From: Dehalococcoidia bacterium
GTDB taxonomy: Bacteria; Chloroflexota; Dehalococcoidia; Bin125
Length of the DNA stretch: 64,000 nt
Assembly: GCA_963662615.2 (NCBI GenBank)
Contig: CAXXSR010000001.1
Coordinates: forward strand, 256,001 to 320,000
Direction: 5' to 3'
This document shows positions 3,859 to 57,940 of this stretch, one piece after another (the stretch's first letter is position 1; each line of letters starts with the position of its first letter). The notes beneath the pieces were generated by a model. The model was not told the origin of the DNA. It worked only from the letters and a program-made list of their open reading frames with translations, and did not search any database. Both the position numbers and the translations under genes were made by a program.

Positions 3859-4761
3859 ATGGCGATCATCGTGTCGATACTGTCACGCCGACTCGCGCGT
3901 TTTCTCGCTCTGCTAAGCTTGGCCCTGGCGGTGGCGCTCCTCGGCGCGGCCTGCGGCAACGACGACGACCTGATCCTGGCCACCACCACCAGCGTCGACG
4001 ACAGCGGCCTCCTCGACGTCCTCGTCCCCATCTTCGAGGAGCGCAGCGGCGTGAACGTCAAAGTCATCGCCGTCGGCACCGGCGCCGCCCTGCGGCTGGC
4101 CCAGGACGGCAACGCCGACGCCCTCTTCGTCCACGCCCCCGCAGCGGAAAAGGCGCTGACCGAAGCCGGCGCCCTCGTCGACCGCCACCTCGTGGCCTAC
4201 AACGATTTCCTCATCGCGGGGCCGCCCGCCGACCCGGCCGGCGTCGCCGGCAGCACCGACGCGGCGGCGTCCCTGCGCCGCATCGCCGCGGCCCGCGCTA
4301 CCTTCATCTCCCGCGGCGATGACAGCGGCACGCACACGAAAGAGCGTGCTTTGTGGACCGCGAGCGGGATTGAACCGGGCGGTCGCTGGTACCAGGAGAC
4401 CGGCCAGGGGATGGGCGCGAGCCTTATCATCGCCAGCCAGAAGCGCGCCTACATCCTCACCGACCGCGCCACCTTCCTCGCGCTCAGCGCCAAGCTGGAG
4501 CTGGCGCCCGTCGTGGAGGGCGACCCGTTGCTGGTCAACCTCTACAGCGTCATGCGGGCGGATCCGGCCCAAGCCCGCGTCAACGCTGACGCCGGCGCCG
4601 CCTGGGTCGAGTTCATGCTGGCCGACGAGATCCAATCCCTGATCGCCGGCTTCGGCCGGGAGGAGTTCGGCAGGCCGCTGTTCTTCCCCGCGGCGGGCAA
4701 GAGCGAAGCGGAGGCGATCAATGAGTTCGTTGGAGCCACCACGCGGCGGGCGGGAGGGTAG
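3859..4761 (+). CDS. tupA: Tungstate ABC transporter substrate-binding lipoprotein
   Basis: Lipobox LGAAC; ATTTSVDDSGLL (TupA signature), GTGAAL, FISRGDDSGTH, GQGMG. Confidence 0.92.
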   Translation: MAIIVSILSRRLARFLALLSLALAVALLGAACGNDDDLILATTTSVDDSGLLDVLVPIFEERSGVNVKVIAVGTGAALRLAQDGNADALFVHAPAAEKALTEAGALVDRHLVAYNDFLIAGPPADPAGVAGSTDAAASLRRIAAARATFISRGDDSGTHTKERALWTASGIEPGGRWYQETGQGMGASLIIASQKRAYILTDRATFLALSAKLELAPVVEGDPLLVNLYSVMRADPAQARVNADAGAAWVEFMLADEIQSLIAGFGREEFGRPLFFPAAGKSEAEAINEFVGATTRRAGG

Positions 4762-4764
4762 CGC

Positions 4765-5463
4765 ATGGAATTCCTCTGGAACGGAATCAAGGAGGCCTTC
4801 AACCTCTGGATCCACGGCGACAGCGAGATCATTGAGATCACTCTGCGCACGCTCGCCATCTCCTTCGTCGCCACGGTGCTCGCGCTGGCCCTCGGGGTGC
4901 CCATCGGCGCCGTCTTGGCCTTGAAGCGCTTCCCCGGACGCGCGCCCCTGGTTGCCCTGGTCAACACCGGCATGGGCATGCCGCCGGTGGTGGTGGGACT
5001 GGTGGTTGCGGTCTTCCTCTGGCGCAGCGGGCCCCTGGGGGGCCTCAACCTCATCTACACCCCCACGGCGATGGTCGCAGCACAGCTCCTCATCGCGGTG
5101 CCGCTCGTGATCGGCATCTCCCTCGCGGCCATACAAGCCATCAATCCGCGCTTGCTCGATCAGATAGTGGCGCTGGGCGCGAACCGCATCCAGTTTCTGT
5201 GGCTGATCATCCGCGAAGCCAGACTGGGCCTGCTGGCGGCGCTGATGGCCGGCTTTGGCGCCGTCATCTCCGAGGTCGGCGCCGCGATCATGGTGGGCGG
5301 CAACATCGCTGGGGAGACCCGTGTCCTCACCACCGCCACGGTGCTGGAGGCGGGGCGCGGCAACTTTGAAGTCGCCATCGCCTTGGGCGTTATGCTGCTC
5401 GTCATGGCCTATCTCGTGAACCTGGTCTTCACCGGTGTCCAGCAGCAGCGGCGCCCCACGTAG
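4765..5463 (+). CDS. tupB: Tungstate ABC transporter permease
   Basis: GMPPVVVGL, FGAVISEVGA, GGNIAGETRVLTTA; follows tupA. Confidence 0.92.
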   Translation: MEFLWNGIKEAFNLWIHGDSEIIEITLRTLAISFVATVLALALGVPIGAVLALKRFPGRAPLVALVNTGMGMPPVVVGLVVAVFLWRSGPLGGLNLIYTPTAMVAAQLLIAVPLVIGISLAAIQAINPRLLDQIVALGANRIQFLWLIIREARLGLLAALMAGFGAVISEVGAAIMVGGNIAGETRVLTTATVLEAGRGNFEVAIALGVMLLVMAYLVNLVFTGVQQQRRPT

Positions 5464-54291: not shown

Positions 54292-54390
54292 ATGACGCTT
54301 CTGCGCCGTCTTAGCAGCCTGGGCGCCGCGCTCATCTTCATGGCAGTGGCCTTCGTGCCGGCGTTGCTGATCCCCGTGCTGGCGAGCTAA
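54292..54390 (+). CDS. Putative 32-aa small membrane protein
   Basis: GGGAGG RBS; MTLLRRLSSLGAALIFMAVAFVPALLIPVLAS. Confidence 0.5.
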   Translation: MTLLRRLSSLGAALIFMAVAFVPALLIPVLAS

Positions 54391-54896
54391 CCGCCCTCGG
54401 CCAGCGCGCGCTGGAACGCCTCATACGAGCGCTCGTCGAAGAGGACGAAGCGGATCAGCGCGATCGCCTCGTCGGCGCCGGCGCGCTCCCGCGCCACGGC
54501 GACCATGATGCGTGCACACTCGTCCGGCGAGAATCCGCCCACGCCGGTGCCCAAGGCGGGCAGGGCGATGGAGTGCAGCCCCAGCTCCTCGCCCAGCCTG
54601 AGCGCGCCGGCCGTGGCGGCGCGGATCTTCTCGGCGTCGGTGGCGAGGTCCTGGCCCATGGCGGCGGCGTGAATGACGTGCTTGGCCGCCAGCGACCCCG
54701 CGCCGGTGACCACGGCGCTTCCAATCTCGATCGGCCCCTGCCGTATCGCCTCCGCCTCAATGCCGCGGCCACCCCGTCCCGCGATGGCGCCGGCAACCCC
54801 GGCGCCCATCTAGAGGTGGTTGTTGGCGGCGTTGACGATGGCGTCCACCACCTGCTCGGTGATGTCTCCCCGCACGGCTTCGATCGTCGATGCCAC
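54387..54896 (-). pseudogene. Macro domain (ADP-ribose-binding/hydrolase) protein interrupted by in-frame TAG at 54810-54812
   Basis: GGAGGAG RBS; VASTIEAVRGDITEQVVDAIVNAANNHL*MGAGVAGAI...VIHAA...ALPALGTGVGGF. Confidence 0.88.
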
Positions 54897-55177
54897 GACG
54901 CTCCTCCGGTGCTGCGCTGCGCATTCTTTTGCGCGCGGCGGGCGCTGTCAACGGGGCCGGGAGCGGCTGGGGAGCGCGTCCCGCGAGGCGACACGAGAGC
55001 CGTCCTGGCCAGATGCCGGGGTCGGCAATACGGTACGGGGAGAAACGGAGGCGGCAGGACCCAGGCGCGGCGTTCTGCCGCGACGGTCGCAGGCCGCGAC
55101 TCGCAATGCCCAGGGGCTGCCGTAGCTGTCGTGCACCTGCCGACGCCGGATCGCCGGCGCCGGCGAGGAGAGCGCGG

Positions 55178-56317
55178 GTGACGTTGATCGCGTCGGCGCT
55201 GCTGAGCGTGTTGGCCTTGCTGCTCGTCGCCTGCGGCGACGGCGAGGCCGGGCCCAGCGCCGTCGCCGCGCCGCCGGCCGTGGCGGAGGGCCCAGCGCCG
55301 GTCGAGCGTGCCGATGCGGAGAGCGCCGTCGCCGCAACGCCGGCACGCTCCGACCACGACTCGCAGCCGATTCCGGAGCCGGTACCCCCCGCCGCCGGCG
55401 CTGTCCGCGTCCTCCCCGCGCCCCTTCCGCCGCCCGCGGTTCGCGAAGCGCGCGACGCCCCGCCGCCGCCTTCGCCGGAAGAGCCGGCGGCGATCGAGGC
55501 GGACCCTCCCGCCCCCTCCGGCCCTATCGCGGAGCGGATAAGCGAGGAGCTATCGCTCGACGCCCTCTCCGTCGCCGCCCGCGCCTTCGCCGAGAGCCGC
55601 AGCGGCGTCGTGGCGGTGGCGGTGATCGATCTGCGCGAGGGACACGTCTACACGGCGCGGACGGACACCGTGTTTTCCCTGGCGAGCGTCGCCAAGGTGC
55701 CGCTGATGCTGGCCGTGCTGGACGCCGCGCAAGGGGAAGGCCGCGCGCTGACCGACGCTGAGTCAGAGGCGCTGCGGTTGATGATCACGGCGAGCAACAA
55801 CGCCGCCGCCGACCGCCTCTGGCGTGCGGTGGGCGGTCGGGAGCCCGTGGTGGCGGTCCTGGAGGCGCTCGCGCTGGGCCGGCCCCGCTTCGCGATTGGC
55901 GAGGGCCCCTGGGGAGCGCAGCAAGCCGACGTCCTCAGCGTGGCCCTGCTGTTCGCCGAAATCGCCGAGGGGACCGTGCTCAGCCCCGAGAGCCGCGCCA
56001 GCGCGCTGCAGCTCCTCAGCTCCGTGCAGCCTGACCAGGCCTGGGGCATCACGGAAGGGCTGACGGCGCACTACGGCGGCGCCGAGGTTGCGCTAAAGAA
56101 CGGCTGGTTTCCCGACGACGAGCGGAGCTGGCGTGTGCACAGCGCCAGCTTCGTGCGCTCCCGCGACGGGCATGCGCTCTACGCCCTGGCCATCCTCAGC
56201 GAGGATCAGCCGTCCTACGCCTACGGCCTGCGCACCGTTAAAGGGGTGGCGCGGGAGATCCACCGGGCCCTGGCCGCGCCGGTGTACATGCCCTACGCCG
56301 TTGCGCCGTCGTCGTGA
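55178..56317 (+). CDS. Class A beta-lactamase-like serine hydrolase lipoprotein
   Basis: Lipobox LVAC; Pro-rich linker; ASVAK (SxxK), SNN, KNG motifs. Confidence 0.85.
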   Translation: MTLIASALLSVLALLLVACGDGEAGPSAVAAPPAVAEGPAPVERADAESAVAATPARSDHDSQPIPEPVPPAAGAVRVLPAPLPPPAVREARDAPPPPSPEEPAAIEADPPAPSGPIAERISEELSLDALSVAARAFAESRSGVVAVAVIDLREGHVYTARTDTVFSLASVAKVPLMLAVLDAAQGEGRALTDAESEALRLMITASNNAAADRLWRAVGGREPVVAVLEALALGRPRFAIGEGPWGAQQADVLSVALLFAEIAEGTVLSPESRASALQLLSSVQPDQAWGITEGLTAHYGGAEVALKNGWFPDDERSWRVHSASFVRSRDGHALYALAILSEDQPSYAYGLRTVKGVAREIHRALAAPVYMPYAVAPSS

Positions 56318-56390
56318 GGGATGAAGAGTGCGGTGCAGGAATCACGACGCGATGCTGGGCGACATCGACTCGCGGCTCATAGTGGTGGCA

Positions 56391-57467
56391 CTAGCTCGCT
56401 GCGGGCAGGGGCTTGCTCCGTAGCTGGTTCAGCGCCTCGATGAGGTCGAGCGTTTGTTCGGCCCCGAGGTCATCACCTTGGTAATCAGTCACGAACAGAC
56501 CCCCCAGATTCGTAGGGATTTCTAAGCGCGTGTCCCACACGAGAATGACTCGCTCACCGAAAAGCGCGAGCGCGCCCCCGATCTCGGTGAGGACGTTGTC
56601 GTTGATCTTAGGCGAGCAGCCCTCCGGCGTTTCCGCCTCGTCCAGGCTGACATTAATGACGGCAGCGGCGCATGTGCGCATAGAGTCGAAAACCTTACCG
56701 GAGACCGGCTCAGCAGTGGTTTCGCGTTCGACCTCTATGACCGGCTCCATACTGGCTAGAGCTACCGCTCGCTTGATCGCGGCGCGGATGGTTTCGTTCT
56801 TGCCGTGACCTATGAAGACGCGGCCCAGATCGACTTGGCGTTCTGTAGGCGTGACTGCCTCTCGACCCCTGTCCTGCTGTTCCGCCTCTTGATCCTCGTC
56901 AGCAGCCGGATGTTCATCCACGTGGTCATCGAGCGCCTCGCCCTCGTCCGTGCGCAATGGGGTCCCCTCGACGAACGCACGCAGCTGCTGTCGATTCACC
57001 GCGAAGCGCGTCTCCTTTCCGTGTCGGCCTACGGTCGTGCTGCCGAGACCCGCAGCCTCGCCGACTGAGAAGAAAAAATTCACCGCTGAGGCAAGCGTCT
57101 TGCTCTTCATGCCACCGATCACGCTGTGAATGTGCGCCTGGACCTCCGAGGTGGGCGCCTCCTCGAACTCCTGCTGATAGATCCATTCGAGCACGTCGGC
57201 GTACGGCTCGTAGCCTCGTAGAATCTCAAACTAGGTCCCCTGATGGTTGGGGTTGCGGGCAATCGATCGCCCGATCTGCGTGAGTTCGAGTTGGTCACTA
57301 TCGCCGACCAACTTCAGCGCTCGGTACGCAGACAGTTTTCGGGGATCAAGGAGCCCCTGCTGCACCTTTGAGCGCGCTTTCTCCAGCGGCTCACCTGTGG
57401 GCTTCGTCTTCAGGTAGCTCGCGATGCTCTTGATGTCTTCCGCGGATGTATGAACTGGGAAAGCCAT
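56391..57467 (-). pseudogene. TIR-like nucleotide-binding domain protein (CAP12/Pycsar effector-type TIR, PF10137-like) with in-frame TAG at 57231-57233
   Basis: ORFs 57231-57467 and 56391-57194 are one frame; C-terminal RVFIGHG...DNVLTEIG...IPTNLGG; GGAGG RBS; visibly lower GC. Confidence 0.82.
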
Positions 57468-57479
57468 CCTGAGTTCCTC

Positions 57480-57497
57480 CTAGAACATCTGTTCTAG
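57480..57497. promoter_or_regulatory. LexA/SOS-type box (GAAC-N4-GTTC) upstream of the TIR gene
   Basis: Palindrome CTAGAAC-atct-GTTCTAG abutting the RBS. Confidence 0.75.
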
Positions 57498-57631
57498 ACG
57501 GATGCGGCTCTAGACGCTACAGCGTCGCAACCTCGCGCGCTTACCTGCGGCAGACACCACGATCCTCGCAGGCCTGGGCGGACGGCCTGGCGCTGGGATG
57601 GCGAGCCCCGTGGAGGCGAGGAGCTGTTCTG

Positions 57632-57940
57632 CTAAAAGATGCCCAGCTCGAACTTGGCCTCGTCGCTGGCCATCTCGCGCGGGTCCCAGGGCGGGCTGAA
57701 GACGATCTCCGTCTCCACGTCCTCGACCCCCTCGGTCGCCGCCGCGGCCTCGTGGATCTGCGCCTGCAGCATGGGCCCTACCGGGCAGGCCGGCGTGGTC
57801 AGCGTGAAAATCACGCGGACGTTCTTGCCGTCCTCCGAGGGCTCAATGCGGTAGATCAGCCCCAAGTCCACGACGTTGATGCCGATCTCCGGATCGAAGA
57901 CGGTCTTCAGCCGCTCGCGAACGTCCTCTTCAGTCACCAT
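57632..57940 (-). CDS. sufT: DUF59/MIP18 (SufT-like) Fe-S assembly protein
   Basis: V.DPEIGINVVDLGLIY, TLTTPACP, FSPPW. Confidence 0.9.
   Translation of the reverse strand: MVTEEDVRERLKTVFDPEIGINVVDLGLIYRIEPSEDGKNVRVIFTLTTPACPVGPMLQAQIHEAAAATEGVEDVETEIVFSPPWDPREMASDEAKFELGIF

Follow-up and report, generated by a model that had tools for sequence, protein, structure and literature searches.

A stand-alone winged-helix–TIR gene with a candidate LexA operator and an internal stop codon next to the suf operon of a Dehalococcoidia bacterium

TIR domains which hydrolyze nicotinamide adenine dinucleotide (NAD+), that is, TIR NADases, are known as effectors that await a phage-sensing partner or a second messenger. 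The described proteins closest to the one treated here are Cap12, the bacterial TIR-STING effector of the cyclic oligonucleotide-based antiphage signaling system (CBASS), and PycTIR, the effector of the pyrimidine cyclase system for antiphage resistance (Pycsar). Toxin genes repressed by LexA are known as well, for example tisB in Escherichia coli, and CBASS can be under the DNA-damage-responsive control of CapH/CapP. Here we analyze a gene from a stretch of 64,000 nucleotides of a Dehalococcoidia genome (assembly GCA_963662615.2, contig CAXXSR010000001.1, positions 256,001 to 320,000 of the forward strand), which we call the window and to which all coordinates refer. The gene encodes two winged helices and a TIR domain (wH-wH-TIR) and follows the last gene of the suf operon. 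We lean slightly towards reading it as a stand-alone winged-helix–TIR NADase module which would be repressed by LexA and which was recently inactivated in the strain of the window. A first-pass annotation had pointed out a lower-GC gene after suf, a TIR domain, a palindrome at a GGAGG motif and an amber codon, and all of these are seen in the sequence. Its interpretation held in part: the stand-alone TIR gene and the LexA-like motif stand, its view of the N-terminus does not, and the candidate SOS control is narrowed to one lineage. The features of the gene are as follows.

56391..57467, minus strand: the whole wH-wH-TIR gene, a pseudogene in the strain of the window owing to one TAG within the frame
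56415..56822, minus strand: TIR domain of the PF10137 type (residues 216-351), from hidden Markov model (HMM), AlphaFold2 model and fold matches
56583..56585, minus strand: GAG codon of E295, aligned with the catalytic E84 of the SfSTING TIR and the equivalent glutamate of PycTIR
56853..56942, minus strand: acidic linker, predicted to be disordered in the AlphaFold2 model (residues 176-205, predicted local distance difference test score, pLDDT, below 50)
56958..57467, minus strand: predicted tandem winged-helix module (residues 1-170; wH1 about 7-75, wH2 about 77-170), from model and fold matches
57231..57233, minus strand: internal TAG at codon 79, where relatives have TGG (Trp); polymorphic in public contigs at plus-strand position 57232
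57476..57480, minus strand: GGAGG ribosome-binding site, 8 nt before the ATG and sharing the last base of the palindrome
57480..57497, no strand assigned: 18-bp palindrome CTAGAACAGATGTTCTAG with the core GAAC-N4-GTTC, a LexA-box-like candidate operator by sequence, matrix and conservation

The protein was searched as the read-through product with an X at the broken codon. PF10137 matches residues 216-330 (E = 1e-14, 55 bits against a cut-off of 24.7, profile positions 1-118 of 119), and the same profile matches 42 of 43 aligned family members. The motif NVLTEIG is present, and its glutamate, E295 (GAG at 56585-56583), is nearly invariant in the 43-sequence alignment. A profile of the 43 full-length relatives, compared with the PDB, finds Cap12/SfSTING (7un8, E = 2.5e-4) and PycTIR (8jsj, E = 7e-3), and NVLTEIG aligns on NVVFEFG and NVHLEFG of these structures, a shared N-V-x-x-E-x-G motif. 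The SfSTING paper (PMC9402430) names E84 as catalytic and F6, N80 and D110 (in trans) as active-site residues; the residues so named there correspond in our profile–PDB alignment to E295, F218, N291 and N320. An AlphaFold2 model was built on an intact relative with 99% identity (pLDDT 87.5). Its TIR part matches 7un8_A with Z 14.2 (root-mean-square deviation 2.7, 130 aligned residues) as well as the TIR domain of SARM1, and Foldseek returns 9lmq at E = 3.7e-5 and the SARM1 TIR at about 1e-3. Thus HMM, fold and motif alignment bear out the TIR domain of the CAP12/Pycsar (PF10137-like) type with a likely catalytic glutamate that had been recognized at the outset, and we regard the wH-wH-TIR architecture and the TIR identity as close to certain. 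Among the defense-system models of PADLOC, five PDC-S35 models match the C-terminal half only (residues 191-346, E = 6e-9 to 5e-4), the best of them covering profile positions 94-250 of 264. No NCBIfam family matches the read-through protein, and a literature search found no paper mentioning PDC-S35. A recent preprint (bioRxiv 10.64898/2025.12.03.692087) mentions PF10137 as a search criterion.

The N-terminal region, which the first-pass annotation had left uncharacterized, appears by model and fold matches as a tandem winged-helix module. In the AlphaFold2 model, a helical N-terminal module (residues 1-170) is followed by a disordered acidic linker (176-205) and the TIR domain (216-351); modeled alone from 40 natural sequences, the module reaches a pLDDT of 92.3. 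As a whole it matches the recognition domain of FokI (Z 9.9, 164 aligned residues), N.BspD6I (Z 9.5), BpuJI (Z 8.2) and BrxA (Z 8.2). The matches to the Type IIS recognition domains extend over 155-164 residues at Z 8.2-9.9, at a stated background of the tool of 7-8, and have Foldseek E-values of at least 0.015. Each half of the module matches winged helices of the MarR/ArsR type. Within the family, winged-helix Pfam domains are hit in several members, namely AAA_assoc_C in 8 of 43 (best E = 9e-7), HemN_C in 7 and HVO_A0261_N in 5. In the ESM Atlas, the top match (0.91) is a cluster without a name, and DUF5343, AAA_assoc_C, DUF7226 and HTH_45 follow at 0.79-0.81 as leads only. PADLOC finds nothing for the first ~190 residues, and a Pfam search of the read-through protein shows no nuclease domain. 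Because the Z scores are only modestly above the background of the tool, we claim a fold class and not a family membership: the N-terminus is predicted to be a tandem winged helix of the nucleic-acid-binding class.

An exhaustive search of 1.84 billion representative sequences gave 780 matches with E of 1e-3 or lower, 34 of which reach 1e-30 or lower. The identity to relatives that have both domains in full length is about 35-38%. A scan of species-representative genomes yielded 430 confirmed loci across many phyla, so that this two-domain winged-helix–TIR family is widespread yet nameless. By record title, the loci belong to Chloroflexota/Dehalococcoidia, Acidobacteriota, Alpha- and Gammaproteobacteria, Actinobacteria, Cyanobacteria and others. 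Genomic contexts were counted on the best 80 loci, of which 67 are full length; the 13 partial ones (L022, L068, L084, L088, L090, L093, L094 and L096-L101) were set aside. When all open reading frames (ORFs) within 3 kb of the 67 full-length loci were clustered, no conserved partner gene emerged. Widely shared are only the TIR gene (67 loci) and ORFs antisense to it; a further cluster, of 7 loci, falls within the gene, and no cluster in the flanks counts more than 4 loci. The window gene itself has no adjacent partner, as had been noted, its neighbors being sufT and a beta-lactamase-like gene. About 23 of the 129 nearest flanking ORFs encode restriction-modification, DndB, Abi, toxin-antitoxin, other TIR, ThsA-Macro or recombinase/transposase proteins, and the surroundings of the homologues are thus defense-island-like. 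Other TIR_2 genes stand on both sides of the homologue L056 (2064-2774 and 4168-4863) and beside L085 (4107-4712), and a ThsA-Macro gene (4200-5069) is found beside L076; these three surroundings look like TIR-rich defense islands.

We also considered whether the gene is a component of CBASS, Pycsar or Thoeris and rejected this. No cyclase family (CD-NTase or pyrimidine cyclase) is found among the 129 nearest flanking ORFs or adjoining the window gene, no ThsA lies next to the window gene and a ThsA_Macro neighbor occurs at only 1 of the 67 loci (L076), and neither the protein nor the family has a Pfam match to a cyclic-nucleotide sensor domain such as STING or SAVED.

The C-terminal domain scores against TIR, nucleoside 2-deoxyribosyltransferase and MilB-type N-glycosidase folds, all at Z 10-13. 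This would suit a DNA-bound TIR enzyme which makes a signaling nucleotide or modifies a nucleic acid or a nucleotide, with the effector encoded elsewhere or with none at all. A Macro-domain gene (PF01661, E = 1.4e-23; 54387-54806, minus strand) 1.6 kb beyond the TIR gene would also fit, as Macro domains act on ADP-ribose derivatives, the products of TIR domains. However, the top sequence and fold matches are the NAD+-depleting effectors Cap12/TIR-STING, PycTIR and SARM1, no partner is conserved at the 67 loci, and the Macro gene is set off by the convergent beta-lactamase-like gene in between. We therefore consider such an enzyme unlikely. By analogy with the effectors named, the intact protein is rather probably an NAD+-depleting defense or abortive effector.

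The coordinate 57231, given at first for the internal stop, is the low coordinate of the TAG codon, and 78 codons precede it, as was claimed. The residue aligned to the TAG is tryptophan in the relatives with 99% identity (P0002, P0158 and P0162) and in the orthologue with 56% identity (P0003). Among the 24 sequencing runs listed as carrying the locus, none is of RNA. Logan contigs were compared across it for four runs, each from a different study (X1, X3, X8 and X11). At plus-strand position 57232, X1 and X3, from two studies, have T (TAG), and X8 and X11, from two others, have C (TGG). X3 departs from the window at 57516; therefore at least one of X1 and X3 is independent of the assembly of the window. 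The alleles of X8 and X11 each have four in-gene differences from the window and no indels. Because the relatives have tryptophan at this codon and both alleles occur in contigs of separate studies, the TAG is very probably a genuine and recent TGG-to-TAG nonsense allele which inactivates the gene. With the TIR gene broken in this genome, the wH-wH-TIR module is probably non-functional in the strain of the window. The amber codon had earlier been explained as inactivation, as a sequencing error or as a read-through-gated safety catch; tryptophan in the relatives and both alleles in nature favor the first and speak against the other two.

At 90% identity the protein clusters with three intact variants of 358 residues, the two pieces of the window and two other split forms (P0159 + P0161 and P0163 + P0160). 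The latter break at a run of four G (~57354) and a run of six T (~57073-57080), and the aberrant tails of both are the window gene in shifted frames right after these runs; they may be recurrent slippage mutations or homopolymer assembly errors. That both sit exactly at homopolymers, the typical place of long-read errors, would agree with the TAG and the other splits all being sequencing or assembly artefacts and the gene being intact in the organism. The defect of the window is, however, a substitution and not an indel. Moreover, runs of two studies carry the TAG, and the contig of one of them does not agree with the window at 57516. Two further studies have C, and the two gene pieces of the window are recorded for 2 contigs. 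An artefact is thus quite improbable.

Could the TAG instead be functional, either by gated read-through or recoding, or by re-initiation at GTG 57194 with a shorter active TIR protein of 267 residues as the product? The frame downstream of the TAG is otherwise clean, with few differences from X8 and X11 and no indels, and the ORF of 267 codons retains the complete TIR domain. On the other hand, TAG is the ordinary stop of both the TIR gene and sufT, the relatives have TGG (Trp), one transition away, the short product would lose wH1 and part of wH2, and by eye no Shine–Dalgarno sequence precedes the GTG. We judge a functional TAG to be very improbable, slightly more so than an artefact, and retain the nonsense allele.

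The palindrome in front of the gene reads CTAGAAC-agat-GTTCTAG (57497-57480), with perfect arms of 8 + 8 nt and a 2-nt center, and is located 13-30 nt ahead of the ATG. The window has this palindrome only once, and 0.03 occurrences would be expected even with two mismatches allowed. In the 2.66-Mb genome, GAAC-N4-GTTC is found at 37 sites; about 23 are estimated from base composition alone. Five of the 37 lie directly upstream of lexA, recA, two genes for Y-family polymerases, and a small ORF followed by a gene for an SRAP peptidase; lexA itself is located at C2:269691-270392 of this genome (G000). A perfect box within 260 nt upstream is present at lexA in 11 of 16 and at recA in 10 of 16 genomes of the same family, and outside the family at lexA in 5 of 9 and at recA in 3 of 7. 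The LexA regulon of this genome thus uses GAAC-N4-GTTC and not another motif, and the palindrome fits it, as had been proposed. We built a symmetrized LexA matrix of 18 nt from 24 training sites of the family, including the lexA, recA and SOS boxes and excluding the TIR site; its consensus is TTAGAACACGTGTTCTAA. In the whole genome, the TIR site ranks first with 25.5 bits, followed by a polymerase box (24.8) and the lexA box (24.7).

The 56% orthologue, the sole close one, is found on two metagenome contigs at the same place, after sufD-Rieske-sufS-sufU-sufT (SufS 79%, SufT 67%, TIR protein 56% identity). It retains CTAGAAT-atat-GTTCTAGGAGG and the ribosome-binding site, with one mismatch in the core (GAAT), and the remaining spacer is unalignable. 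This palindrome scores 20.5 bits with the LexA matrix, which would be about rank 7 in the window genome and above the recA box. From motif, rank and conservation we conclude that the palindrome of the window is likely a LexA operator. A literature search found nothing on a Dehalococcoides LexA with the GAAC motif. Within the spacer, sites of variation are located at 57477, 57491, 57512 and 57516 of the window: a C-to-T change at 57491 turns the left half-site of X8 and X11 into GAAT, X11 has GGAAG in place of GGAGG as ribosome-binding site, and G is replaced by A at 57516 in X3, X8 and X11.

Several observations weigh against a LexA-repressed NADase module. Within 200 nt upstream, GAAC-N4-GTTC, also with one outer base relaxed, is absent from all 67 full-length homologue loci. 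By record title, these box-free loci include 25 from Chloroflexota, Dehalococcoidia and Actinobacteria, groups which are expected to use the GAAC-N4-GTTC LexA box, and an intact homologue with 37% identity in a genome of the same family (G008) has no box either. The intact-frame alleles of X8 and X11 and the orthologue carry GAAT, so that the perfect GAAC box goes with the broken gene. A promoter and terminator scan found no sigma-70-like promoter and no terminator between sufT and the TIR gene (no promoter-like site at all, and one terminator-like site, inside the gene on the other strand and no more than shuffles give), and read-through transcription from suf is possible. A post-transcriptional role would suit the palindrome hairpin equally well. 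The N-terminal fold scores of Z 8-10 are only slightly above the background of 7-8, the TIR gene is broken in the strain of the window, and enzyme activity, LexA binding and expression of the module are all predicted from sequence or model.

The scan for the box at homologues, which the first-pass annotation had called for, thus came out in two ways: the close orthologue has the box with the GAAT mismatch, the distant homologues lack it. The E. coli-type LexA box CTGT-N8-ACAG is likewise absent upstream of all 67. As none of the distant loci is boxed, the candidate SOS control is a lineage-specific wiring and not a trait of the family. Since X8, X11 and the orthologue share GAAT, this form is probably ancestral and the perfect GAAC derived on the stop-bearing haplotype. 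As TAGAAT, the left arm could also serve well as a -10 hexamer, which in the orthologue is preceded by TGn, and the T-to-C change in the window could weaken such a promoter.

The palindrome could alternatively act in the RNA, as a hairpin in the 5′ untranslated region which occludes the Shine–Dalgarno sequence and limits synthesis of a toxic protein, also from suf read-through transcripts, or it could be the operator of another regulator, possibly of the gene's own winged helix. In the folded RNA of the window every base of the Shine–Dalgarno sequence is indeed paired (-17.1 kcal/mol, z -2.1; 7 of 200 shuffled sequences fold as well), and both the C-to-T change at 57491 and the GAAT of the orthologue keep the hairpin paired as G-U. 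The lack of a promoter and terminator after sufT in the scan would fit as well, and the predicted DNA-binding look of the N-terminus would suit another regulator. Yet the orthologue region folds no better than shuffles (z 0.16), and as DNA the site is the best match of the genome to the LexA matrix, including the flanking TA/TAG positions. Further, no common palindrome is found upstream of the 67 loci (arms of at least 7 nt occur in 11, against ~4 expected, all with unrelated sequences), which argues against a family-wide autoregulatory operator. We regard a hairpin or the operator of another regulator as a less likely but serious alternative and continue with LexA.

Other boxes were seen in the course of these scans. 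Three more sites of the LexA matrix, at ranks 4, 6 and 7, have no recognized SOS gene adjoining (G000 C1:795369, L004 1770-1781; C2:630862, L010 1863-1874; C1:1469083, L007 1784-1795). The L004 site lies ~77 nt upstream of an ORF of 214 residues (L004 1049-1693, minus strand) which has a low GC content at third codon positions (GC3) and by eye a hydrophobic N-terminus; at L007, the site and the ATG of a small ORF, by eye rich in Cys and Arg, overlap. In 6 of 16 genomes of the same family (L125, L003, L127, L131, L133 and L134), the perfect box of recA is preceded at 26-30 nt by an imperfect one, GAAC-N4-GTGC, and the two make a conserved double operator. The genome G027 has a second recA copy (L140/L141, C1:349606-350390) with the RecA match in two overlapping pieces (1-150 and 145-262), and this copy is probably frameshifted or split. 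Finally, GTTC-N7-GTTC, the alphaproteobacterial type of LexA box, occurs in the promoter region of 2 of 16 alphaproteobacterial homologue loci (L041 2928-2942 and L046 2913-2927; ~0.1 expected by a rough estimate), and at L041 it abuts TTGACG. These boxes may mark an independent SOS wiring of the winged-helix–TIR family.

How the gene came to its place is suggested by its two neighbors.

57632..57940, minus strand: sufT (DUF59-type), last gene of the suf operon and upstream insertion boundary, from the ORF list and the family and genome comparison
54890..56317, plus strand: convergent beta-lactamase-like gene, downstream insertion boundary, which adjoins sufT directly in G009 and G003

The TIR gene extends on the minus strand from 57467 to 56391 (ATG 57467-57465, terminal stop TAG 56393-56391; 358 codons plus stop) and is separated from sufT by a spacer of 164 nt. 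Its GC content is about 0.60 against 0.68-0.74 in the flanks, and its GC3 is 0.716 against 0.92 for sufT and 0.93 for sufS (about 0.92 both). In 13 genomes of the same family sufT is present without a TIR homologue within 1.5 kb, and two of the 13, G009 and G003, have sufT and the beta-lactamase-like gene as immediate convergent neighbors. The low GC3 is found in both the window and the 56% orthologue. The 13 genomes without the TIR gene, the direct convergence and the low GC3 together support the reading of the TIR gene as a putative ~1.2-kb low-GC3 insertion between sufT and the beta-lactamase-like gene; the empty sites in relatives and the drop in GC3 thereby uphold the insertion after the suf operon that had been suspected. 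A search for terminal repeats around the insertion, direct or inverted, gave only short pairs at chance level, which do not mark a mobile element, and the spacers of G009 and G003 aligned to the window give no usable insertion boundary. Plasmid and phage collections, searched with an intact relative by tblastn, gave no match at E 1e-5. The spacer of 164 nt wholly contains no small ORF of at least 20 residues, the sole listed one running antisense into sufT, and Rfam has no match in 56200-57800 at E up to 1. In the beta-lactamase-like gene, the longest ORF starts with ~90 Arg/Pro/Ala-rich residues (54890-55150, plus strand) before a lipoprotein-like signal, and its true start is probably further downstream.

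We suggest that the module would work in these following steps. A common ancestor of the strain of the window and one metagenomic lineage acquired a single-gene defense-type module, inserted between sufT and the beta-lactamase-like gene. Its tandem winged-helix N-terminus would, judging from the fold, most likely serve as a nucleic-acid-binding sensor or assembly domain, which the disordered acidic linker connects to a PF10137 TIR domain with an intact active-site glutamate. LexA bound at the 18-bp palindrome would repress the gene, and the RecA-stimulated cleavage of LexA after DNA damage would derepress it. The winged-helix module could then bind nucleic acid and nucleate TIR oligomers, which by analogy with Cap12/TIR-STING and PycTIR would hydrolyze NAD+ and in this way stop growth or abort infection. 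In the strain of the window this chain would be broken, as the TGG-to-TAG transition at codon 79 cuts the protein after 78 residues, and intact alleles circulate in the same population.

A more far-reaching proposal, which we offer tentatively and hold to be rather doubtful, is that in one marine-type Chloroflexota lineage the SOS response, via the strongest LexA operator of the genome, arms a DNA-sensing winged-helix–TIR suicide enzyme as an NAD+-depleting switch, and that this switch is costly, so that on and off alleles coexist. The intact frames with the weaker GAAT box would be set against the nonsense allele with the perfect box, with the possible homopolymer frameshifts as further off forms, and the direct repeats at 2 of 16 alphaproteobacterial homologues would reflect an independent recruitment into the SOS regulon.

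What makes the locus of interest is that here the TIR catalytic domain stands alone behind a module of the nucleic-acid-binding type. If the link to LexA is true, it would directly tie the canonical SOS repressor to an NAD+-depleting enzyme of the immune type; a literature search found no paper which joins LexA or SOS with a TIR NADase. Nature also offers the variants, the 18-bp operator as GAAC and GAAT and the gene as intact and broken, and the coexisting on and off alleles give a way to approach the cost in fitness which such a gene imposes on uncultured marine bacteria.

Compared with the known systems, Cap12/bacterial TIR-STING (7un8, 9lmq) shares with our protein the PF10137 domain, as the best fold match (Z 14.2), and the equivalents of the catalytic glutamate, F6 and N80, with the conserved polar N320 in place of D110 as a difference; activation by oligomerization would be expected by analogy. 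Unlike Cap12, the window protein has its TIR domain at the C-terminus and not at the N-terminus, has no STING domain but a predicted tandem winged helix as sensor, and has no CD-NTase gene nearby. PycTIR (8jsj) likewise carries a C-terminal PF10137 TIR domain with the glutamate motif aligned (E = 7e-3 with the family profile), whereas its N-terminal domain is unrelated and no pyrimidine cyclase is adjacent to or conserved with our gene. PDC-S35 of PADLOC is a one-gene TIR-type candidate defense system as well, and its five models match the C-terminal half; the match is, however, partial (profile 94-250 of 264, nothing for the first ~190 residues) and falls short of a full-length PDC-S35. The recognition domains of FokI, N.BspD6I and BpuJI and the BREX protein BrxA resemble the N-terminal module as tandem winged helices over ~150-165 aligned residues (Z 8.2-9.9), but with 8-13% identity and without a nuclease domain in our protein, so that this is a fold resemblance near background and not a membership. 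As in the LexA-controlled toxic genes, a potentially self-harming gene would be silenced by a damage-responsive repressor site near the ribosome-binding site or promoter; here the site is a candidate canonical Chloroflexota-type LexA box and the cargo a TIR enzyme. By analogy, then, the module would work most like the Cap12 and PycTIR effectors, with a different sensor of the DNA-binding type. Its architecture and its candidate SOS wiring are new in detail, and its component parts are of known kinds.

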